Shown here piece by piece: positions 12,808 to 26,077 of a stretch of 56,203 nt of DNA. The notes beneath the pieces are model-generated. The model was not told the origin of the DNA. It worked only from the letters and a program-made list of their open reading frames with translations, and did no database searches. The stretch is taken from positions 1-56,203 of the IMG/VR virus record IMGVR_UViG_2778260992_000008, one strand, 5' to 3'. Position 1 is the first letter of the stretch. Each line of letters opens with the position of its first letter. The position numbers were made by a program, and so were the translations under genes. The DNA is from a virus. Its lineage: Duplodnaviria > Heunggongvirae > Uroviricota > Caudoviricetes.

Positions 12808-12823
12808 TGTGACATCGTTCACA
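12808..12823. promoter_or_regulatory. perfect CRP-type palindrome TGTGA-N6-TCACA
   Basis: TGTGACATCGTTCACA; lies ~18 nt upstream of a candidate -35 (TTGTCC 12841-12846). Confidence 0.4.
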
Positions 12824-15408: not shown

Positions 15409-15892
15409 CAGGTTATTAGCCTGCGTTTATGTCGCCGTTTTCGTGATCATCAATCTTATTGTTAACCATTGCGGCCCGTGGGTAATTCCGATCACCACGG
15501 TAGCCGCCGTGTGTGTCAATATGATGATCCGTGACTTCCTGTTATATGACGGCGGCCTGAAATGGTCGGCTACCACATGCGCCATAGCTGGCGCGATCAC
15601 GGTGCTGATAAATTACGATGCCGGAATGGTGGCGATTGCGTCATTCGTCGCGGTTGTTTCCGGTGCGCTTATTTCTGGCGGTGTTTACCGGGTATTACCT
15701 GGTGACTTTGATTCTAAACGCTGGCCTGCAAATATAGCGTCCGCCATTGGTGATGCGTTAATTTTCCCCACGCTATCGTTTATGGCGTTTATGCCTGAAA
15801 TATCAGCTATGCAATTCATCTCAAAAATGGCGGCGGTAACGGTGATAACTATCATCATGCGCCGCTATTTCACGTTTGAGGGTAGGGAATGA
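15389..15892 (+). CDS. polytopic membrane protein, YhhQ/VUT-like (possible queuosine-precursor transporter)
   Basis: Several hydrophobic helices; resemblance to YhhQ-family segments judged by eye only. Confidence 0.4.
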   Translation: MKRVVIDRLLACVYVAVFVIINLIVNHCGPWVIPITTVAAVCVNMMIRDFLLYDGGLKWSATTCAIAGAITVLINYDAGMVAIASFVAVVSGALISGGVYRVLPGDFDSKRWPANIASAIGDALIFPTLSFMAFMPEISAMQFISKMAAVTVITIIMRRYFTFEGRE

Positions 15893-16677
15893 GCAGGGCT
15901 AAACATTGGTTAAATAAACAGCTTAGAAATTGGGTGGTGTGGTCGCTGTACGACGGCAGCGGGTACGCTGTTAAAGATTGGGCGGACGCTGGTTATAAAT
16001 GTTATTGCTTTAACTATGACGGCGCTAATCACGGCGATTATGACGGGGTAAAAATAATTCATCCAAATATTGAATATGTCAACGTCTGGATTGATAGCCA
16101 TTTCCTGGTAATGTTCTCCCCTGAATTGTCTGTATATCCAGATCCTGACATTATCCTGGGCTTTCCTCCGTGTGATGATCTTGCTGTGTCCGGCGCTCGT
16201 TGGTTCGCTGATAAGCGGAAGAAAGATCCTTACTTTCAGCAGAAAGCAGCGTACAACGCAAAACTGGTAGAAACGCTGGCGAGTATGTATAACGTCCCGT
16301 GGATGGTGGAAAATCCTGTGGGCGCACTGTCAACGTTATGGCGTAAACCTGATTTTATTTTCAATCCGTGCGCTTACGGTGGCTACCTGCCGGAAGATGA
16401 CAAGCATCCTGCTTTCCCGGAATACATCGCTGCCCGTGACGCCTACACGAAGAAAACTTGTATTTGGTGTGGAAATGGATTTAAGCAGCCGCTATTCCGG
16501 CCTGTATCGATGCCGGATGAATGGGAAGACAGTAAACAGCACGCTAAGTTAGGAGGAAAATCGAAACGCACTAAGATGATCCGCTCACTAACGCCGCGCG
16601 GCTTTGCCCGTGCTGTATTCCTGGCTAACGACCGGGCTATCACGCGGACGACGCTTAACCGTGTTTTACCGGATTGA
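15889..16677 (+). CDS. DNA C5-cytosine methyltransferase-like protein with atypical motif IV
   Basis: Motif I-like LYDGSGY; motif IV-like GFPPCDD (canonical PCQ); motif VI-like MVENPVG; only 262 aa. Confidence 0.45.
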   Translation: MSRAKHWLNKQLRNWVVWSLYDGSGYAVKDWADAGYKCYCFNYDGANHGDYDGVKIIHPNIEYVNVWIDSHFLVMFSPELSVYPDPDIILGFPPCDDLAVSGARWFADKRKKDPYFQQKAAYNAKLVETLASMYNVPWMVENPVGALSTLWRKPDFIFNPCAYGGYLPEDDKHPAFPEYIAARDAYTKKTCIWCGNGFKQPLFRPVSMPDEWEDSKQHAKLGGKSKRTKMIRSLTPRGFARAVFLANDRAITRTTLNRVLPD

Positions 16678-16699
16678 TGTTTACAAAATGGCGTCATTG

Positions 16700-16715
16700 T
16701 GTGATGAAGGTCACA
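16700..16715. promoter_or_regulatory. perfect CRP-type palindrome TGTGA-N6-TCACA
   Basis: TGTGATGAAGGTCACA, ~18 nt upstream of candidate -35 TTGTTC (16733-16738) and -10 TATACT (16755-16760). Confidence 0.4.
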
Positions 16716-16840
16716 TAATGGCGCTTTTTACTTTGTTCGGGTGTATCCATTTTGTATACTGCAATCAAACGAAATGCTCTTTAAAAATCCGGCCCCGCTG
16801 AAATGCGGAAACACATCACCTAACAGAATGAGATCAAATT

Positions 16841-18151: not shown

Positions 18152-18571
18152 ATGAATGAATATTCTTTTAGTCTGCCTTACCCGCCGTCGAATAACCGAT
18201 ATTACCGACATTCACGCGGTTTTCACTATATCAGCAAGGTTGGAAAAGAATACAGGGAACAGGTAAGAGACATCATCGAGCTATTAAATTTAAATATTAA
18301 CCTACCTTGCCGACTGGCAATTGCCATTTACGCCGCGCCGCCGGATAACCGGATCAGAGATCTGGACAATATCCCTAAATGCCTTTTTGACAGCCTTACT
18401 TATGCCGGATTCTGGAAGGATGACGGGCAAATCGACTCAATAAAAATTGTTCGCTGCCGGAAGGTAAAAGGCGGACGCTTGTTTATTAAGATACGCGAGC
18501 GCGGCGACCTGCTACCGGATATTGACGAATACGCGACGAATATGTGGGGTGACAATGAAAAACGAAATTAA
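18152..18571 (+). CDS. rusA: RusA-family Holliday junction resolvase
   Basis: PPSNNRYY...RDLDNIPKCLFDSLTYAGFWKDDGQI typical of RusA. Confidence 0.75.
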   Translation: MNEYSFSLPYPPSNNRYYRHSRGFHYISKVGKEYREQVRDIIELLNLNINLPCRLAIAIYAAPPDNRIRDLDNIPKCLFDSLTYAGFWKDDGQIDSIKIVRCRKVKGGRLFIKIRERGDLLPDIDEYATNMWGDNEKRN

Positions 18572-18737
18572 AGATCTGCAAATTGATATTCAGCGTGATG
18601 AGCATGATTTAGAAACTGTCAGACAAATCCAGGCTTTTCACATGCGCGAATTGCTCGCATTAAAAGAGCTTGAGAGAAAGTTAGTCCAGGCTATTTCTGA
18701 TCGTAAACAACTGGCGGCGCGTTACGGGGGTAAATAA
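18555..18737 (+). CDS. hypothetical coiled-coil protein (60 aa)
   Basis: ATG 18555 with RBS GGGGTGA; inside track ORF 18522-18737. Confidence 0.4.
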   Translation: MKNEIKDLQIDIQRDEHDLETVRQIQAFHMRELLALKELERKLVQAISDRKQLAARYGGK

Positions 18738-19459
18738 TGAATTTAGAATCCATTCTAAAATTCCACTTCCCCAAATCGCCGCGATTATCAGACGAAAGCC
18801 GGGGCACGTCACCGGATGCGCTTAATACAACGGATGCGCTAACCGCTGCTGGTATGGCGCAATCGCGCGTAGAGCTTGGATATAGCGCTTTTTTAGGAAA
18901 GATGGAACTATCGCAAGCCGAAAAACACAGGGCCGTAGTTTTGCTTACAGAGCGTTTAAGAGCTATGGCAAAAGATTACGAATACGTGATGGAATTAAAT
19001 GAAGAACAACGCAATGATCTTATTATTCTTGTTGCCGTTTTCGCGTTTCGGGATTATTGCCAAAGCGCCGCGACGGAAAAAACTTGTATGGAGTGCGGCG
19101 GATATAAATTTACGTTTGACGACTACGGAGAAAAACACCTTTGCAAAAAATGCAAGGGGCATGGGAAAGTTCGCAATCATTGTAAACAATGCAAGGGGCG
19201 TGGCGAAGTACCGGATAAAGCAGCCAGCGAAGCGGCGGAAATGCCAGTTTTCAAAACGTGCCAGCACTGCGGCGGGCGCGGGTACTCGCGTTTCCCGGTA
19301 GATCTTGTCCGCCAGGCGGTTAATCAGCTTGTTTTCCCGGTAAGCCGATCAACCTGGTGGAAAAAATACCGGGTTTTCTATGAAGACGCCATAGCGGAGC
19401 TATTCAAAGAAGAGGCCCGCGCGGAAAGTGAAATCAAACGAGTGACACGGGGTGATTAA
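18737..19459 (+). CDS. DnaJ-type zinc-finger protein (CxxCxGxG x4), possible late regulator
   Basis: CMECGGYK, CKKCKGHG, CKQCKGRG, CQHCGGRG; downstream of nin/rusA where lambdoid phages often place Q. Confidence 0.4.
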   Translation: MNLESILKFHFPKSPRLSDESRGTSPDALNTTDALTAAGMAQSRVELGYSAFLGKMELSQAEKHRAVVLLTERLRAMAKDYEYVMELNEEQRNDLIILVAVFAFRDYCQSAATEKTCMECGGYKFTFDDYGEKHLCKKCKGHGKVRNHCKQCKGRGEVPDKAASEAAEMPVFKTCQHCGGRGYSRFPVDLVRQAVNQLVFPVSRSTWWKKYRVFYEDAIAELFKEEARAESEIKRVTRGD

Positions 19460-19659
19460 TGGATAAGCTGGAAATAAACGATCAGTTTGTCGTTCTCTTG
19501 TTTGAAGATAAAACAGGCGGCGCATGGTGTAAGAAAGTCACTGGTGCGGAAGCGCGTTTAATATTGGGTATGGCAAGCGCGTTAAATGAAGGCGAATTGC
19601 CTGCCATCCCTATTAAGCCTGTCAAAATTTACAAGCGGGGTGACGATGATGAAGCCTAA
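19459..19659 (+). CDS. hypothetical protein
   Basis: 66-aa ORF, ATGA-type junction with upstream gene. Confidence 0.35.
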   Translation: MDKLEINDQFVVLLFEDKTGGAWCKKVTGAEARLILGMASALNEGELPAIPIKPVKIYKRGDDDEA

Positions 19660-19918
19660 ATTAAAAGAACATCTATTTGCAAAGCTGGTTAATGACCTGA
19701 CATTATCCGCGCGGTTGTGCCGTGATACACAACAATTAAGGGCGTGGATAGCAAGGGATTTAAAAAAATATATTGAGCCTGGCGGGCCAGGTGGCGAAAT
19801 CACGATGGACGAAGCCATCAAGCGCCGGACGGCTGAATGGTCAGTGAGTAACACCGGATTAACCGGATACATTGAAGGATATAACGACTGTTTACAGGAT
19901 CATAATGATGACAAATAA
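19646..19918 (+). CDS. hypothetical protein
   Basis: ATG 19646 with RBS GGGGTGA; inside track ORF 19586-19918. Confidence 0.4.
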   Translation: MMKPKLKEHLFAKLVNDLTLSARLCRDTQQLRAWIARDLKKYIEPGGPGGEITMDEAIKRRTAEWSVSNTGLTGYIEGYNDCLQDHNDDK

Positions 19919-20207
19919 ACACTTACATTTAAATTTAAAAGGGGAATACTTTCACGCTATCCGGGCGGGAAAGAAAGTGGAGGAATACAGGCTTTATAAT
20001 GACTACTGGCGGAAACGCCTGGAAGGGCGGGAATACACAAGATTAATCATCAAATGGGGATACCCGGCTAACGACGAGAAGGAACGAATACTTATTCTTC
20101 CTTATATGGGATACACAATCAAGACAATTCAGCATCCTTTATTTGGCGACGATCCTGTTAAAGTTTTTGCTATCAAATGCGATATTTATTGGCAATATAG
20201 GTTTTAG
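19905..20207 (+). CDS. hypothetical protein
   Basis: ATG 19905 with RBS AGGA; inside track ORF 19872-20207. Confidence 0.35.
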   Translation: MMTNKHLHLNLKGEYFHAIRAGKKVEEYRLYNDYWRKRLEGREYTRLIIKWGYPANDEKERILILPYMGYTIKTIQHPLFGDDPVKVFAIKCDIYWQYRF

Positions 20208-20210
20208 AAT

Positions 20211-20423
20211 ATGAAAAGTAACCGCAAGCGCCTTGTAAGGGCATACGACAAAGCATTAAAGGCTTTTGATGATCTGCGACACAATAAACGCCAGCGCCGT
20301 AAATGGGCGCGAATGCTTGTTAGTGAGTGGCATGATGAGGATTTTTTCCTTGAGGCCAGACACATGACGCAGGATGACGCCGACTTATTAGCTGATGATA
20401 ACGTTTACTATATGATGTGGTGA
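20211..20423 (+). CDS. hypothetical protein
   Basis: 70-aa ORF in tandem array. Confidence 0.35.
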   Translation: MKSNRKRLVRAYDKALKAFDDLRHNKRQRRKWARMLVSEWHDEDFFLEARHMTQDDADLLADDNVYYMMW

Positions 20424-20427
20424 TAAT

Positions 20428-20793
20428 ATGCAAATAATCATTGATTATCTTTGCCATGCTGCAAATACGCTTTTCGGTTTCTATCAACAGCCGTTTCTCA
20501 GAGAATGGGATAACATGTTGAACGATATCCTCGACAAAGGATTAATAATGGAAGTCGGGGAACTAACAATCAAATTTAATTACGAAGGCGAAGAATATGA
20601 TATATGGGTAGGTAACAGATGGTATGCATACGCTCATATTTATTCAATTGGCGGTAAATACATTAAACGAAGTCAAGAATTCAGACCACGCTTCCGCACA
20701 ATGCGCCGCCTGCATGATCTGCATATGAAGTTATTCGAAGATCAGGAAGCACGGGAATTATTCAAAATTTACGGGGATAAATCATGGAGCTAA
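20428..20793 (+). CDS. hypothetical protein
   Basis: 121-aa ORF in tandem array. Confidence 0.4.
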   Translation: MQIIIDYLCHAANTLFGFYQQPFLREWDNMLNDILDKGLIMEVGELTIKFNYEGEEYDIWVGNRWYAYAHIYSIGGKYIKRSQEFRPRFRTMRRLHDLHMKLFEDQEARELFKIYGDKSWS

Positions 20794-21014
20794 AAATCTG
20801 GCAGGCTATCGACGTAGTTGATAACGAATTATCTATGTTCGCCACTGACGGAAAGCGCGTGGTGATCGCTACATGGACGCGTAACCATGATGATATCGCT
20901 TTTCGTCGCAAGGCTGCGGAGTGGCTTTTCTCTGATGGCGGCTACACGATGAACATCGCACAGCTTGCCAGAATGAAGGATGAAAAGCTGGTAGACAGCT
21001 ACACAACTGCATAG
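20784..21014 (+). CDS. hypothetical protein
   Basis: 76-aa ORF overlapping upstream gene end. Confidence 0.35.
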   Translation: MELKIWQAIDVVDNELSMFATDGKRVVIATWTRNHDDIAFRRKAAEWLFSDGGYTMNIAQLARMKDEKLVDSYTTA

Positions 21015-21024
21015 CGGGGGAAAT

Positions 21025-21258
21025 ATGCGTATCTATGAGCACAAGCGGGATAAAACCCGCTTTTTTGTTCGTGCTGGCGTGGCGTACCAGTATCACGACT
21101 GCGGATATATTGAGGCGCTTGCTTACGATCTGGACTTCGAACAAGAAAAAGAATGGTTCGATTTCAAAATTTACCGGAAGCGGAAACCAACGCGCGACGA
21201 GCGCCACGCTATCCGCGATTTTCTAATCAGCATTGACCGCTGGGAGGCAGAGGAATGA
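21025..21258 (+). CDS. hypothetical protein
   Basis: 77-aa ORF in tandem array. Confidence 0.35.
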   Translation: MRIYEHKRDKTRFFVRAGVAYQYHDCGYIEALAYDLDFEQEKEWFDFKIYRKRKPTRDERHAIRDFLISIDRWEAEE

Positions 21259-21548
21259 AAGCAAAGAAAGCAGCAGATCAGAAAGCGTTAGTTATCGCAA
21301 CAACGGATGTATCGTTATTCACGAAGGGAGAAGAAATAGATCTTAAATTGCTTTTTGGCATGTTTGAGCCACACGAAAGGCCGTGGTTTGTTCATGAAGA
21401 TAAACAAGGCAATATGCGCGTTGTAGTGCCGGACAGAAACAGCGACATATTTTTTGCTATTCCAGACCCGTTACATGACGAGGAAATGCTGGCGGTATTG
21501 TTGATCGCTGATGCTGTTACTTACAAGGGAAAGAAATATGAAAGTTAA
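21255..21548 (+). CDS. hypothetical protein
   Basis: 97-aa ORF, 4-nt overlap with upstream gene. Confidence 0.35.
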   Translation: MKAKKAADQKALVIATTDVSLFTKGEEIDLKLLFGMFEPHERPWFVHEDKQGNMRVVVPDRNSDIFFAIPDPLHDEEMLAVLLIADAVTYKGKKYES

Positions 21549-21765
21549 ATTCTTGCACGATCACGGCTACCCGTCATTAAAACGCGTAGTAGGGGAAGTG
21601 GTAGACGTTGTTCACTCTGATGATGTGACCTGCGTCATTTTGGGTAAAGACCTTATTGCTCACGGTGCTGATCAGAATTATATCAATCCGGCGTGGTCGT
21701 ACACGTTCAGTCTTGGGGACTTTGTAGGCGATAAGGGGCGCGGGCTGCAAGTAGTCGAGGGTTAA
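21538..21765 (+). CDS. hypothetical protein
   Basis: ATG 21538 with RBS AGGGA; begins MKVKF like two other array members. Confidence 0.35.
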   Translation: MKVKFLHDHGYPSLKRVVGEVVDVVHSDDVTCVILGKDLIAHGADQNYINPAWSYTFSLGDFVGDKGRGLQVVEG

Positions 21766-21769
21766 TATC

Positions 21770-21985
21770 ATGGATGTTTACGAAGATTTATACCTTCAAA
21801 CAAATACCCGCACTTTTTATTTTTTGAAAAACGGCGTCGTATATCGCAGCGATGATGGGGTAATAATGAAGGAGTGGTTATTTAAACGCAAAGACCTGAT
21901 TGATGACCTGGTTTTTGCCGGGATATTCCGTAAACGTCCGGCTAACCTGGAAGAAGAAATGTTGATCGATGAGGTATTAAAATGA
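21770..21985 (+). CDS. hypothetical protein
   Basis: 71-aa ORF in tandem array. Confidence 0.35.
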   Translation: MDVYEDLYLQTNTRTFYFLKNGVVYRSDDGVIMKEWLFKRKDLIDDLVFAGIFRKRPANLEEEMLIDEVLK

Positions 21986-22233
21986 AAGTGAAAGTGAATT
22001 ATTTCAGGGCAAAAGACAAGGCAACAGGGAAGCGTGTAGCCGTCCTGGTTAATGAGGCCAATTACATGTTTATCCTTCAGCCGTGGTGCATAGCTGATTA
22101 TAACGATGATTATCGACGTCATGCTGCGCGGCGGGCGGTTGGCATGAAAGGCTGGCAACCGCGCGACATGCTTAATTATTGCGATTGGAACCTGATAGCA
22201 AAATATACGGTCGATTATAAAGGGGTTTTCTGA
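21982..22233 (+). CDS. hypothetical protein
   Basis: 83-aa ORF, 4-nt overlap; begins MKVKV. Confidence 0.35.
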   Translation: MKVKVNYFRAKDKATGKRVAVLVNEANYMFILQPWCIADYNDDYRRHAARRAVGMKGWQPRDMLNYCDWNLIAKYTVDYKGVF

Positions 22234-22517
22234 TGGAAAGCTATTTTGATCGGATGTTTTGCCGCACAACTTGTAACGAATACAAATTCACTACGGGCCA
22301 GGCTTACAAAATTCACAGGCTGCGCAATGCGACCACTGATCCGATGGTGTTTATCATGGACGACAACGAAGGCGCGTTTTACCAGGTATTCTACTGCGGT
22401 GATCTTGATTATGCACTGGTGAAAAATATCACCGGACAATGGCTTGCGCAGTTTTCCAGATACCCGGCTGATGTTGACACGAAAAATTATTTAAAGGTGG
22501 CTGATAATGCAAGTTAA
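22233..22517 (+). CDS. hypothetical protein
   Basis: 94-aa ORF, 1-nt overlap with upstream gene. Confidence 0.35.
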   Translation: MESYFDRMFCRTTCNEYKFTTGQAYKIHRLRNATTDPMVFIMDDNEGAFYQVFYCGDLDYALVKNITGQWLAQFSRYPADVDTKNYLKVADNAS

Positions 22518-22719
22518 GTGTTCATATTCAAGCAATGACAGTGTTTTCACTCTTGGGCGTGTTTATGACGTTCATATCGTTTATGGCAATGAAGCACACA
22601 GAGTGAGTGATTGCCTTGCCTTGATTGATAATCATGATGAAATTTGGATATTCAGGCCAACTTATCGGGGTGGCGAAATATCCGGTATTGATTTTTCCGC
22701 CAGCTTCGAGCGTTATTAA
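22507..22719 (+). CDS. hypothetical protein
   Basis: 70-aa ORF; begins MQVKC. Confidence 0.35.
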   Translation: MQVKCSYSSNDSVFTLGRVYDVHIVYGNEAHRVSDCLALIDNHDEIWIFRPTYRGGEISGIDFSASFERY

Positions 22720-22728
22720 GGGGGCGAC

Positions 22729-22944
22729 ATGATTTTAACGTGTCACGGATCTGATCTTGATTGTTTCGAAGACGGTTGCCAGTACGAAGCGGAAAAGCCA
22801 GGTGGATTACCAAAAAACCCGTTTTTAGTCGTTACGGACACTTACGGGCACTTATGGTATGCAGCGCCCAGCAAGGCGCGCGGCTGGTGGTTGATTCAGA
22901 ATGAAGATCGCGCGGTTGTGGTGGCCTTTAGGCAGGATGAATAA
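22729..22944 (+). CDS. hypothetical protein
   Basis: RBS AAGGGGG; 71-aa ORF. Confidence 0.4.
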   Translation: MILTCHGSDLDCFEDGCQYEAEKPGGLPKNPFLVVTDTYGHLWYAAPSKARGWWLIQNEDRAVVVAFRQDE

Positions 22945-22968
22945 AACGTGATCTACCCCGCAAAGTTT

Positions 22969-23008
22969 ACAAAATGGCATTGTTCAGGCAGTGCCATTTT
23001 GTTATAAA
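22969..23008 (+). promoter_or_regulatory. inverted repeat ACAAAATGGCA/TGCCATTTTGT overlapping a sigma70-like promoter
   Basis: 11-nt arms at 22969-22979 and 22992-23002; TTGTTC (22980-22985), 17-nt spacer, TATAAA (23003-23008). Confidence 0.5.
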
Positions 23009-23043
23009 GAAGCTGAAGAGAGAATGATGCGGAGGGTAGAAAA

Positions 23044-23316
23044 ATGAAACGCTGGATTAACGAAGAAACAGAGTCCCGCTTCAATGCAATTTGGGATCTG
23101 ATTGAAAAAGAGGACGGCGTTTCTAGTCCCTACCTGAACAATCTTGAGTTCCACTATGTAGAAGCGATGAACGCAGAGCATGACCACGAAGGCGGTGCTG
23201 ATGAATTCGCTAAAAAATACGGCTTCGATGATGCAAACCATATGATTAACAACGTGGTGATGCAGGCAGAGGAAGACTACGAATGCAAATCACTTGAATT
23301 CGCACGCATGGCATAA
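23044..23316 (+). CDS. hypothetical acidic protein
   Basis: RBS GGAGGG; 90-aa ORF. Confidence 0.4.
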   Translation: MKRWINEETESRFNAIWDLIEKEDGVSSPYLNNLEFHYVEAMNAEHDHEGGADEFAKKYGFDDANHMINNVVMQAEEDYECKSLEFARMA

Positions 23317-23326
23317 GGGGGAAAAC

Positions 23327-23467
23327 ATGAACGCTAACGATAAATATCCGGCCTGGGTCTTTGAACTATACGCCCGCTATTTTGAAGAACTGGCACCAGG
23401 GGAAGAAGCATTGAGCATTGACGAATACGCGGAGTGTTTAGGATTTAAAGGGGGCAAAGAAGAATAA
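23327..23467 (+). CDS. small hypothetical protein (46 aa)
   Basis: RBS AAGGGGGAAAAC-ATG; not in track (<60 aa). Confidence 0.35.
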   Translation: MNANDKYPAWVFELYARYFEELAPGEEALSIDEYAECLGFKGGKEE

Positions 23468-23479
23468 ACACGGGGCCGG

Positions 23480-23761
23480 ATGGCCCCCATAAGGAGTGAA
23501 GCAGTGGTTGTTATCAGACTATGGCGCGGTAATAGCAAGTTAGACGGCGAATACAGCCGCGTTGTTGAAGTCGTCAATCTTAAACGGTTTTACGAACTGG
23601 CATACAGCGAAAAACGGGAGAGTGTTTATTTGGACGAATCAATCCCAACGTGGCGCAAGGTAGCAGGTTTGCAGTCGCTGGTTAAACATGGGTTTTGGAC
23701 TGACCATAACACCCTGGAAGATGCAGAACTGGTAAAAACATTCTATGTGGAAGGAGAATAA
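23480..23761 (+). CDS. hypothetical protein
   Basis: 93-aa ORF in tandem array. Confidence 0.35.
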   Translation: MAPIRSEAVVVIRLWRGNSKLDGEYSRVVEVVNLKRFYELAYSEKRESVYLDESIPTWRKVAGLQSLVKHGFWTDHNTLEDAELVKTFYVEGE

Positions 23762-23764
23762 ACA

Positions 23765-24085
23765 ATGGCTAAATTCATCATCATTAAAGTTATGCGCGGC
23801 ACTTTCCCGAACGACGAAAAAGCGTATGGCCCGTTCGCAGGCAAGCCGGGCGCTATCTTCCATGTTGAAACTGAGGAAGGGAAAGCGACATACATTCCGG
23901 TAAGCGAGCCGCCATTCGAAGTGGCACATCTGGAAGAACCGAACAGGATTAAAGCGTTTGTTTGCCTGTCACTGATGATGGGTAACGTGCTCGATAATCC
24001 GGTTGATCTTGAAAACGGGGAACAAGTAGCAGAGTTCCGCATGACTCCAAACGAAGATGGAAACGCAGAAATTGAACGTTTATAA
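23765..24085 (+). CDS. hypothetical protein
   Basis: 106-aa ORF; RBS GGAAGGAG upstream. Confidence 0.4.
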   Translation: MAKFIIIKVMRGTFPNDEKAYGPFAGKPGAIFHVETEEGKATYIPVSEPPFEVAHLEEPNRIKAFVCLSLMMGNVLDNPVDLENGEQVAEFRMTPNEDGNAEIERL

Positions 24086-24308
24086 AATCCGCTGCAAAGG
24101 CAGTTATGACGGATTCACCACGGGGAGCGAATACTTGGGCCATATTGGGTATGGCCCTTTCGGCAACCTGGGGATGAATACGATCGACGATGACGGCGAC
24201 GAGCGAACGTTGGATCTTGATTCTGATGACTTCGAATACATTCCGCCAGTTACCCACTACGCCGTTGATTGTTTCCTGGACGAACAAGAAGACGAGGACG
24301 ACGACTAA
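24057..24308 (+). CDS. hypothetical acidic protein
   Basis: 83-aa ORF with strongly acidic C-terminus. Confidence 0.35.
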   Translation: METQKLNVYKIRCKGSYDGFTTGSEYLGHIGYGPFGNLGMNTIDDDGDERTLDLDSDDFEYIPPVTHYAVDCFLDEQEDEDDD

Positions 24309-24439
24309 TGGACGAATGGTATCAAAATTTACTTATTCTATTCCTTGCTGAAAATTGGGCCTTATTCGAACGCTTTTGTGAACAGCACGGCGAAGACCCT
24401 GAGGATATTTATCACGATCTTGGGGGTGAGGATGATTGA
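24308..24439 (+). CDS. small hypothetical protein (43 aa)
   Basis: ATG overlaps upstream stop (TAATG). Confidence 0.25.
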   Translation: MDEWYQNLLILFLAENWALFERFCEQHGEDPEDIYHDLGGEDD

Positions 24440-24632
24440 GTGTCTTATAGCTGTGATTGTTCTCATTTATATCGCTGGCGCTGGCCTGATGGCTTGTTTT
24501 ATCAAATATAACGATCTCGACCCTAGAAGTTTTGAGATTATTTTCTGGCCTGTAGTGGTGTTTATCGCTTACGTCGAGGCCACGCACGCACAGATCAAAA
24601 GAGCTATTAAGGAGCGTAAAAATGGGAAATAG
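24432..24632 (+). CDS. small membrane protein
   Basis: ATG 24432 with RBS GGGGGTGAGG; two hydrophobic helices. Confidence 0.4.
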   Translation: MIECLIAVIVLIYIAGAGLMACFIKYNDLDPRSFEIIFWPVVVFIAYVEATHAQIKRAIKERKNGK

Positions 24633-24819
24633 CGACCATGAATATGATGGCGTTTATCAGTCATTGGCTACGCGAGCTTATTACCGCCTCGAAGGTGAAC
24701 ACGTTTTGATGCGACTTGGTAGTCTTGATCGGTGGCATGAGCCATTTTTACCTATGACAGCGAAAGAAGTTATCACGATGGTTAATCACAGATACTGGCG
24801 CAAGGTTGGTGATTTGTAA
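24622..24819 (+). CDS. hypothetical protein
   Basis: 65-aa ORF, last gene before terminator. Confidence 0.35.
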   Translation: MGNSDHEYDGVYQSLATRAYYRLEGEHVLMRLGSLDRWHEPFLPMTAKEVITMVNHRYWRKVGDL

Positions 24820-24882
24820 CCATAATCGCGCATAAAAAACAAATAGATTAAAATATTTCCTAACAATGCGAAATTGTATTCA

Positions 24883-24905
24883 CCCGGCATCGCGCCGGGT
24901 TTTTT
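24883..24905 (+). terminator. rho-independent terminator upstream of lysis cassette
   Basis: CCCGGC-ATCGC-GCCGGG hairpin followed by TTTTTT. Confidence 0.6.
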
Positions 24906-24925
24906 GCTTTGTTGGAGGTAAATCT

Positions 24926-25126
24926 ATGTTCGACAAAATACGGGAGGCGTGCGCGTATGTGACCGGGGCCGTAACTGCTTTTTTCGGCGCGATAACCATC
25001 AATGACGTTGCCGTCTTTGTGGGTATCTTATCAACCATAGGCACATTTGCCGTTAATTATTACTTCAAATCACAGGAGAACAAGCGAGCGCAAGAGGAAC
25101 ACGACGCGCGAATGGGGAATAAGTAA
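24926..25126 (+). CDS. holin (66 aa)
   Basis: RBS GGAGG; two hydrophobic helices and charged C-terminus; directly precedes endolysin. Confidence 0.5.
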
Positions 25127-25127
25127 C

Positions 25128-25619
25128 ATGATTAGCCAATCGCTGAAGAATAAAATTATTGCTGCGGCGGCTGGTGGGGCGATCGCTATTGCGGCGGTGA
25201 TGGTTAAACCATTAGAGGGCGTGGAGTACGATCCCTATCGTGATGTTATCGGTGTATGGACCGTTTGTTATGGTCACACCGGAAAAGACATCATGCTGGG
25301 TAAGACTTACACGCAATCAGAATGCGATGCTTTGTTAAACAAAGATCTCCACAAAACCGCAAAAGCGATTGACCCATATATTAAAGTCGAAATATCAGAT
25401 TTTACCCGCGCGGCGCTTTATTCATTCGCCTATAACGTAGGCGCTACCAACTTCAAAACATCAACCTTATTAAAACTACTCAACGATGGCAAGAAATCCG
25501 AAGCGTGCGCCCAGCTTAAACGCTGGATATATGCTGGTGGTCAAAAATGGCAAGGTTTAATCAACCGCCGTGATGTTGAATATGCCGTTTGTGAATGGGG
25601 GGAAACGTGGACAAGATAA
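25128..25619 (+). CDS. SAR endolysin, T4-type lysozyme family
   Basis: N-terminal signal-arrest-release helix [17 protein letters not shown] followed by [23 protein letters not shown] catalytic region. Confidence 0.75.
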
Positions 25620-26077
25620 AGGCGTTAATCATCGCCGTGATTGTTTGCATTGTTGCCGGACTCACCGCCGCGCTTTGTTACTACCAGTCAACCATAAACA
25701 CGCTACAGACTGAACTAACGACAACTCAAGGCGCATTAAAAACGGCAAGTAACACTATCCAGCAAATGAAGGATCGAAACGCCGAACTGTCAAAACTTGA
25801 TAAGAGGTATCACGATGAAATTAAAGCTATCAGGTCCGATATTGCCGATCTGCGCAGCGGTATTGATAGCGGCGCTATCAGGTTGCACGTCAACGCAATA
25901 CCCGTGCGAGTGCCCGACACCACCGGAACCGCCAGCAGCATTGATGGAGCCGCCTGTAGACTCACTTCCGACGCTGAATCGGCTTATCTATCCCTCAGAG
26001 AACAACTAAAAGAGAAAGACGCGAAGATTACCGGATTACAGAGCTACATCAAAACGCAGTGCTTACGCAAAGAATAA
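25595..26077 (+). CDS. i-spanin (Rz-like)
   Basis: N-terminal TM helix then coiled-coil periplasmic region; overlaps endolysin end (GTG at 25607 is an alternative start). Confidence 0.6.
25815..26009 (+). CDS. o-spanin (Rz1-like lipoprotein) nested in +1 frame of i-spanin
   Basis: Lipobox LSGC after signal [20 protein letters not shown]; Pro-rich mature part. Confidence 0.6.
   Translation: MKLKLSGPILPICAAVLIAALSGCTSTQYPCECPTPPEPPAALMEPPVDSLPTLNRLIYPSENN

Follow-up and report, generated by a model that had tools for sequence, protein, structure and literature searches.

The 56,203-nucleotide stretch of DNA analyzed here (the window), IMG/VR record IMGVR_UViG_2778260992_000008 of a virus of the Caudoviricetes, carries at positions 19459-24819 an unbroken tile of 22 small genes (g01-g22), all on the + strand, between a gene for a lambda-type Q antiterminator and the lysis genes. 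We read this block as a post-Q array of accessory genes in a temperate siphophage or prophage that belongs to the mEpimmI (mEp021-like) group. The array would be transcribed within an early operon under N-type antitermination, and its products would bind host or defense proteins. To this reading as a whole we assign a probability of roughly 60%. The block is of an ordinary kind, being an ORFan accessory array of an already published phage group. The one observation that we believe to be new is the predicted structural kinship of a set of its tandem paralogs, termed FamA, with the protein Gp54 of phage Bas11.

Start codons were picked with the help of Shine-Dalgarno (SD) motifs and the annotation of homologs; the start of g02, for example, was fixed by its SD motif and by the annotated homologs in mEp010 and GF66.2. 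The resulting genes are 43-121 codons long (mean 80) and make 97% of the block coding. A first-pass annotation of the window had given the block exactly these limits and had described genes of 40-120 codons lying almost end to end, as is found here, but its estimate of about 25 genes was inflated by alternative-frame open reading frames (ORFs). On the + strand, ORFs of at least 43 amino acids cover 97.4% of the block, compared with a mean of 44% and a maximum of 65% in 200 dinucleotide shuffles. Counting the Q/g01 junction, 13 of the 22 junctions overlap, eight of them by 8-29 nt, three by 1 nt, and two by a 4-nt ATGA (g07/g08 and g10/g11). The remaining junctions consist of eight gaps of 3-12 nt and one gap of 99 nt. 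Overlapping junctions had been noted before, correctly, but the ATGA or 4-nt type then said to be common accounts for these two cases only. The genes are translationally coupled, and an SD-like motif stands ahead of 21 of the 22 starts (background 40%).

Pairwise Nei-Gojobori comparisons of the window with orthologs gave ratios of nonsynonymous to synonymous substitution rates (dN/dS) of 0.04-0.37 across all 22 genes; the value of 0.37 belongs to g18 and was calculated for its C-terminal 54 codons only. Because of these ratios, the ORF coverage above that of shuffled sequence, and the SD motifs, the 22 ORFs are genuine protein-coding genes, each under purifying selection, and conservation as coding sequence in relatives, on which the first-pass annotation had made its proposal depend, is established for every one. 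Known domains are missing from most products, and the length of several is below 50 amino acids, which could be taken to mean that the frames are chance or decaying ones. This explanation is effectively refuted by the same measures, by RefSeq-annotated homologs, and by the PHROG families, to which 18 of the 22 proteins match, all to different families and all annotated as of unknown function (the unmatched proteins are g10, g12, g13, and g14). As a side observation, ORF coverage of the block on the - strand is 65%, equal to the shuffle maximum, with antisense ORFs of 96-150 amino acids, such as 21817-22269 (-) over g10-g12. Given the purifying selection on the + frames, these were treated as by-products of the coding strand.

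The assignment to a phage group rests on sequence matches and gene order. At the nucleotide level the block matches phages mEp010, mEp013, mEp021, mEp044, mEp515, mEp554, and MagusPhagus as well as prophages in 35 of 5,426 complete Escherichia coli genomes, at about 83-92% identity and with patchy coverage. The closest record aligns with 84% of the block (87% identity), and the exact gene combination occurs in no record. The mEpimmI phages were described in 2025 as Nus-dependent, non-lambdoid temperate coliphages (PMC11893012). Of this region, that study mentions only a small protein encoded ahead of the lysis genes, which mass spectrometry detected in purified mEp021 virions (PMC11893012); the protein, mEp021_41, is the ortholog of g10. 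GenBank and RefSeq label the homologs of the block as hypothetical proteins.

A set of 49 sequences was assembled from 45 IMG/VR loci collected using Q, three annotated records, and the window; 47 of these contain both anchors, and everything from Q to the holin gene was extracted from them. In the window, Pfam searches identify a lambda-type Q on the 5' side and genes for holin (HP1-type), lysozyme, and Rz on the 3' side, all on the same strand, and the 47 arrays show this arrangement as well. Protein clusters 3, 8, 4, 5, and 6 (g06, g07, g09, g10, and g11), orthologs of mEp021_38 to mEp021_42, follow one another in this order in 46-47 of the 47 arrays, and the block ends at a conserved pre-holin terminator segment. 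The corresponding regions of other members of the group (mEp010_51 to mEp010_73, mEp021_38 to mEp021_45, and E. coli prophages such as GF66.2 and PAR) agree with the window in position, strand, flanks, terminator, and order, have the core genes g06, g07, g09, g10, and g11 in common with it, and share 65-97% protein identity for most genes. The window differs from most of these relatives in having the rare gene g12 (4 of 47 arrays) and a single copy of a second small family, FamB, where they have two.

Among the 47 arrays the interval from Q to holin ranges from 2.0 to 6.8 kb and from 8 to 28 genes, with 40 distinct gene orders and synteny always kept. Four genes (g06, g09, g10, and g11) are present in all arrays and two (g05 and g07) in 46; these six form a universal or near-universal core, and the other positions are variable, so the proposed comparison with related phages has separated conserved from variable members. 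The variable slots are filled by gain and loss of cassettes, by tandem duplication (FamA in g12-g14; FamB at g22), and by deletion fusions. If the g12 and g14 families are included, the g12-g14 slot of related arrays holds 0-4 copies, and g04 (cluster 2) is duplicated in tandem in loci L016, L021, and L032-L034. Natural in-frame fusions join g12 to g17 (L043 gene 13), g19 to g22 (L039-L041 gene 11), and FamA to g19 (proteins P0060, P0061, and P0064, joined at a shared DDDGD microhomology), and a FamA-FamB fusion is also seen among proteins P0060, P0061, P0063, and P0064; deletion and recombination between cassettes are therefore ongoing.

The constancy of the core permits another view of it, namely that g05-g07 and g09-g11 are virion-associated, DNA-handling, or regulatory proteins and that only the variable cassettes are accessory. 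Their presence in 46-47 of 47 arrays, dN/dS values of 0.05-0.11, the occurrence of the mEp021 ortholog of g10 in purified virions (PMC11893012), and the basic character of g11 all agree with such a role. No core protein matches a known structural, replication, or regulatory family, however, and a small packaged protein could equally be an injected counter-defense factor. We consider a housekeeping core possible, at clearly less than even odds.

FamA proteins are about 70 amino acids long and follow the pattern MxVKC..S..F.vG.iY.V...D..GD.W.F...A.F, with invariant columns C5, F14, Y20, and D41. The family includes g13 with certainty. Its neighbors g14 and g12, which lie on either side of it at 22233-22944, are probably members as well, as both keep C, F, Y, and D at the invariant columns and align with the FamA profile in hhalign (g14: E 1-2e-5, probability 77-82%; g12: E 1.2e-4, probability 55%, 67 columns). 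A similar motif in the N-terminal half of g19 fell short of significance against FamA (hhalign E 0.0034). A word-indexed search with FamA returned 75 protein clusters, in which every organism-named source is E. coli, and in an exhaustive hidden Markov model (HMM) search over 1.8 billion representatives the only additions were spurious repeat proteins; judged from these searches, the family is confined to E. coli prophages of the mEpimmI group. FamB proteins, of about 60 amino acids, are encoded at the 3' end of related arrays by 1-3 tandem genes, with g22 as the member in the window, and the FamB subfamilies are linked to one another at E values of 1e-7 to 1e-20 (hhalign probability 91-99%).

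Several apparent relationships were rejected. The genes at 21538 (g09), 21982 (g11), and 22507 (g13) had been named in the first-pass annotation as duplicates on account of a common MKVK/MQVK N-terminus. The shared residues are the first four only, BLASTP found nothing, and hhalign gave E values of 0.12-0.31 with probabilities below 1%; g09 and g11 belong to different PHROGs and g13 to none. The resemblance is a four-residue coincidence, and the local duplication that the note had rightly suspected lies instead in g12-g14. Single-linkage clustering merged g13 with g16 and g19 with g22 through ORF calls that run into a conserved intergenic element and through deletion-fusion proteins (L039_11 and L043_13); a g12-g17 link (probability 99%) is an artifact of the same causes and does not reflect paralogy. 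Large repeat proteins and designed 'Cake' beta-propellers, which appeared as FamA kin in HMM and PDB searches, score about 7 bits per repeat and reflect summation of the motif.

An AlphaFold2 model of g13 built on a 22-sequence FamA alignment (predicted local distance difference test score, pLDDT, 90) is a six-stranded beta-barrel with a long loop between strands beta1 and beta2. Gp54 of Bas11 (PDB 9AXB) has the same strand number and a prominent beta1-beta2 loop, an F-x-x-G motif occupies an equivalent structural place in FamA and Gp54, and the tandem paralogs g12-g14 are predicted to share this rare fold with Gp54. In a Foldseek search of predicted viral structures, similar small barrels were found in many uncharacterized proteins of enterobacterial siphophages. 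Gp54 is a small, dispensable protein of Bas11 that triggers CapRelSJ46, a fused toxin-antitoxin defense (PMC11578894). Like the FamA genes it is encoded inside a run of small hypothetical genes, and it too is an accessory protein of an E. coli siphophage. The Gp54 family is spread through T1-like phages, where it is single-copy and the phages are virulent, whereas the phages with FamA are temperate and carry it in 1-4 diverging copies arranged in tandem. A more far-reaching proposal, which we consider unlikely, would unite FamA and Gp54 in one widespread, sequence-divergent superfamily of six-stranded beta-barrels that engage host immune sensors or effectors, the FamA copies forming a counter-defense locus together with FamB and the acidic cassettes. 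If this were true, FamA paralogs would diversify to inhibit or evade various defenses, and the post-Q array would be a temperate-phage anti-defense island.

Other leads to function are few. Searches of the 22 proteins against Pfam and NCBIfam yielded nothing usable apart from a sub-threshold match of g03 to ASCH (PF04266; 16.2 bits, cutoff 21.2), which covers the first 25 profile positions only. The aligned homolog of g03 is a RefSeq 'RNA-binding protein', one related prophage block also encodes an 'ASCH domain-containing protein', and g03 has a weak PDB match to PH0355; g03 is a probable ASCH-like (PUA-type) domain protein. Two matches to OXA beta-lactamases at E ~0.003 were attributed to chance. 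Sequence searches of the PDB with g05 and g18 gave no match, and a model of g10 (pLDDT 87) had no convincing structural neighbor in the fold search. By its maximum Kyte-Doolittle 19-residue window of 2.67, g21 is a small membrane protein. Acidic proteins predominate, with isoelectric points (pI) below 7 in 18 of the 22 and net charges of -7 to -17 in g15, g16, g18, g19, and g20. A role of the block in host takeover or anti-defense is plausible, fitting the small acidic proteins, rapid cassette turnover, tandem diversification, and the fold of a defense trigger.

The transcriptional setting was examined next to the gene content. There is no intergenic space between Q and g01, as the stop codon of Q and the ATG of g01 have one base in common. 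About 2.7 kb upstream of the block, at 16683-16808 and after the stop of the gene at 15889-16677, a hairpin with a perfect TGTGA-N6-TCACA stem (16700-16715) and a T-run is followed by a boxA-like TGCTCTTTA (16775-16783) and a boxB-like CCGC-TGAAAT-GCGG hairpin (16795-16808). The segment probably consists of a terminator and, behind it, the nutR2 site belonging to the Gp17 antitermination system, which has been reported for the mEpimmI group (PMC11893012). Because of the unbroken Q/g01 junction and the boxA/boxB-like nut site, the array probably constitutes the distal end of the early-right (delayed-early) operon. Once modified by the N-like Gp17, RNA polymerase would read through the array, passing an internal terminator at 22969-23002, and would stop or be taken over at the pre-holin terminator, where a Q-responsive late promoter would probably lie. 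The proteins would act singly on host or defense proteins (in host takeover, counter-defense, or exclusion) rather than as one machine, and arms-race turnover would act on the members that vary and duplicate.

The pre-holin terminator lies 63 nt past the end of the block, directly 5' of the holin ribosome-binding site; together with the preceding ~45 nt it is kept in 47 of 47 arrays regardless of the last cassette, it corresponds to TERM_5 in mEp021 and T9 in mEp010, and it occurs in this phage group only. Just upstream of it is an invariant or nearly invariant segment, TAAAAT and AACAAT separated by 7 nt, which resembles the -10 and pause elements of lambda pR' (TAAATT, 6 nt, AACGAT). The single long gap between genes (22945-23043) contains the internal hairpin, whose stability is higher on the + strand and which belongs to a mid-array element found in 38 sequences of the set of 49, the window being one of the 49. 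Sequence changes in the hairpin preserve pairing through G.U pairs, one change is compensatory, and the ARNold terminator T8 of mEp010 falls at the same place. These elements modify an earlier description of the block as bounded by regulatory inverted repeats and a terminator: the terminator is present, but no inverted repeat marks the 5' side, where the block runs straight on from Q, and the conspicuous hairpin is internal. Separately, a 14-nt string, GTTTACAAAATGGC, is present both at 16682-16695 and at the internal hairpin (22965-22978). Searches with Rfam, a tRNA scan, and a DNA-level repeat search gave nothing relevant.

The same layout could also be read with a Q-responsive promoter at the 3' end of Q, placing the 5.4-kb array between pR' and its terminator and making its expression constitutive or late. 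In lambda, pR' directly follows Q, and in the window no strong conserved terminator other than that at 24882-24900 stands between Q and the late genes. The end of Q argues otherwise, with no intergenic space behind it, no promoter-like match, and no island of extra synonymous-site conservation in its 3' end. Moreover, the gene that follows Q differs (g06 or g05) in mEp021 and L039-L041, so that any pause or Q-loading element downstream of the start site would lack conservation. We regard a late leader of this kind as very unlikely.

The 99-nt gap itself suggests a second arrangement, in which all or part of the array, especially g15-g22, would be a moron with its own promoter, expressed from the prophage and conferring superinfection exclusion or a defense benefit (lysogenic conversion). 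The gap is the sole long intergenic space, is kept in 38 of 49 sequences with differing cassettes behind it, and contains TTGTTC and TATAAA at a 17-nt spacing (22981-23009; read by eye); the unit is closed by a terminator, and g21 is a membrane protein. In 16 of the 38 relatives with the mid-array element, a perfect CRP-consensus-like palindrome, TGTGATCTGTATCACA (TGTGA-N6-TCACA), directly follows the stop codon of a g14-type gene, 27 nt ahead of the hairpin (L004, L010, L012-L014, L021, L026-L033, L036, and L044). This palindrome may be a site for CRP or may form another small hairpin. A CRP-activated internal promoter was nevertheless downgraded, as the window copy, CGTGATCTACCCCGCA at 22948-22963, is degenerate (CGTGA..CCGCA) and the perfect palindrome at 16700 makes up the stem of a hairpin resembling a terminator. 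The putative promoter in the gap is below the scan threshold and overlaps a stable RNA hairpin, PADLOC found no match, and the exclusion lipoproteins characterized for the group are Lpp (PMC11893012). An independent moron is quite unlikely in our judgment, and both it and the late leader are less well supported than the early-operon reading. A further perfect TGTGA-N6-TCACA palindrome was observed in an intergenic position at 12808-12823, followed by CCGTTTTGTAAACTG, which resembles CCATTTTGTATACTG at ~16748; the two sites are possibly copies of a regulatory element repeated in the early region.

A number of results weigh against an early-operon array of host- and defense-binding proteins. The timing of expression, early versus late, is inferred from the layout alone. 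In the pre-holin segment of the window no convincing sigma-70 -35/-10 pair for the late promoter was found, a good -35 being absent, and sequences resembling promoters occur in the region no more often than expected by chance. None of the 22 proteins matched PADLOC models of known anti-phage defense systems at E <= 0.01, and none had a sequence or structural match among characterized inhibitors (Acr, Ocr/Ard, Tad, and others). Sequence homology between FamA and Gp54 was not detected, with hhalign E 0.74 for the FamA profile against Gp54 alone, E 0.07 (probability 0.8%) against a 7-member Gp54 profile, and no link by tblastn; the relationship is one of fold and comes from a predicted model. For Gp54 itself, inhibition of another defense is mere speculation by its authors, and its close homologs do not activate CapRelSJ46 (PMC11578894). 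The core genes, including the virion-associated g10, may serve ordinary phage housekeeping and not host interference.

Comparison with better-known phages helps to place an early-operon accessory array. The lambda nin region consists of small ORFs between P and Q and is similar in that its ORFs are short, overlapping, largely dispensable, and part of the N-antiterminated early-right operon. The block in the window differs in lying downstream of Q, with the NinG and RusA homologs of the window upstream of Q, and none of its 22 proteins has a Nin-family Pfam match. Stx phages carry cargo such as stx and nanS-p between Q and the lysis genes, downstream of pR'-tR' and Q-dependent, in the form of a few larger genes of known function. 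The same slot from Q to holin is thus a hot spot for variable cargo in both, but in the window the terminator apparently comes after the cargo, which is made up of many tiny ORFans. With 8-28 genes in 40 orders, the related prophages amount to a natural experiment that directly shows which small genes are dispensable, eight being enough in mEp021, and they offer ready-made comparisons for plaque screens of defense systems. Coordinates and properties of the individual features are collected in Table 1.

Table 1. Genes and regulatory elements of the block and its flanks in the window (aa, amino acids; dG, folding free energy; array counts refer to the 47 arrays).
Feature	Coordinates	Strand	Properties
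Q antiterminator gene	18737..19459	+	240 aa; Pfam PF03589 Antiterm, E 1.3e-29; CxxC zinc motifs; RefSeq homologs 'antitermination protein'
g01	19459..19659	+	66 aa; acidic; variable, 43/47 arrays; phrog_35000; cluster 10; dN/dS 0.19
g02	19646..19918	+	90 aa; 40/47 arrays; phrog_29262; dN/dS 0.22
g03	19905..20207	+	100 aa; basic; 36/47 arrays; phrog_625; dN/dS 0.04
g04	20211..20423	+	70 aa; 43/47 arrays; phrog_8758; dN/dS 0.15
g05	20428..20793	+	121 aa; near-universal core, 46/47; phrog_16975; dN/dS 0.07
g06	20784..21014	+	76 aa; universal core, 47/47; phrog_38280; ortholog of mEp021_38; dN/dS 0.11
g07	21025..21258	+	77 aa; core, 46/47; phrog_30442; ortholog of mEp021_39; dN/dS 0.05
g08	21255..21548	+	97 aa; variable, 30/47; ATGA overlap with g07; phrog_33175; dN/dS 0.12
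g09	21538..21765	+	75 aa; universal core; MKVK-type start; phrog_5009; dN/dS 0.10
g10	21770..21985	+	71 aa; universal core; ortholog of mEp021_41
g11	21982..22233	+	83 aa; basic, pI 9.6; universal core; MKVK-type start; phrog_38609; dN/dS 0.09
g12	22233..22517	+	94 aa; rare cassette, 4/47 arrays; probable divergent FamA paralog; no PHROG match
g13	22507..22719	+	70 aa; definite FamA member; predicted six-stranded beta-barrel; no PHROG match
g14	22729..22944	+	71 aa; 23/47 arrays; probable FamA paralog; no PHROG match
g15	23044..23316	+	90 aa; net charge -13; 17/47 arrays; phrog_7287; dN/dS 0.15
g16	23327..23467	+	46 aa; acidic; phrog_22232; 141-nt homolog annotated in RefSeq; dN/dS 0.10
g17	23480..23761	+	93 aa; 32/47 arrays; phrog_32200; dN/dS 0.16
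g18	23765..24085	+	106 aa; acidic; 43/47 arrays; most divergent member; phrog_23107
g19	24057..24308	+	83 aa; net charge -17; FamA-like motif in N-terminal half, acidic C-terminal tail; phrog_25234
g20	24308..24439	+	43 aa; net charge -12; 19/47 arrays; phrog_15754; 132-nt RefSeq homolog; dN/dS 0.15
g21	24432..24632	+	66 aa; hydrophobic; 41/47 arrays; phrog_10061; dN/dS 0.30
g22	24622..24819	+	65 aa; FamB member
Holin	24926-25126	+	Pfam PF16080, 8e-16; HP1-type
Lysozyme	25128-25619	+	Pfam PF00959, 6.5e-44
Rz-type spanin	25595-26077	+	Pfam PF03245, 3.5e-24
Internal hairpin	22969..23002	+	15-bp stem, dG -20.2, z -5.3, then UUAUA; probable intrinsic terminator
TAAAAT, 7 nt, AACAAT	24849..24867	+	invariant or nearly so in all arrays; candidate late-promoter -10 and pause-type -10-like element
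Pre-holin intrinsic terminator	24882..24906	+	7-bp stem (24882-24900) with 6 GC pairs, then TTTTTT; dG -14.9

Two further observations concern the flanking genes. The ORF list prolongs the holin gene by 60 nt upstream (24866-25126, 86 aa), over the terminator, and the true ATG is that at 24926, behind GGAGG, which yields a holin of 66 aa, the form annotated by RefSeq in relatives. Between RusA and Q lies a 60-aa gene (18555-18737; phrog_18514, function label 'unknown') that is annotated by RefSeq in relatives; at one end it overlaps RusA (the 3' part of that gene), at the other it has a base in common with the ATG of Q, and it is likewise small and translationally coupled.

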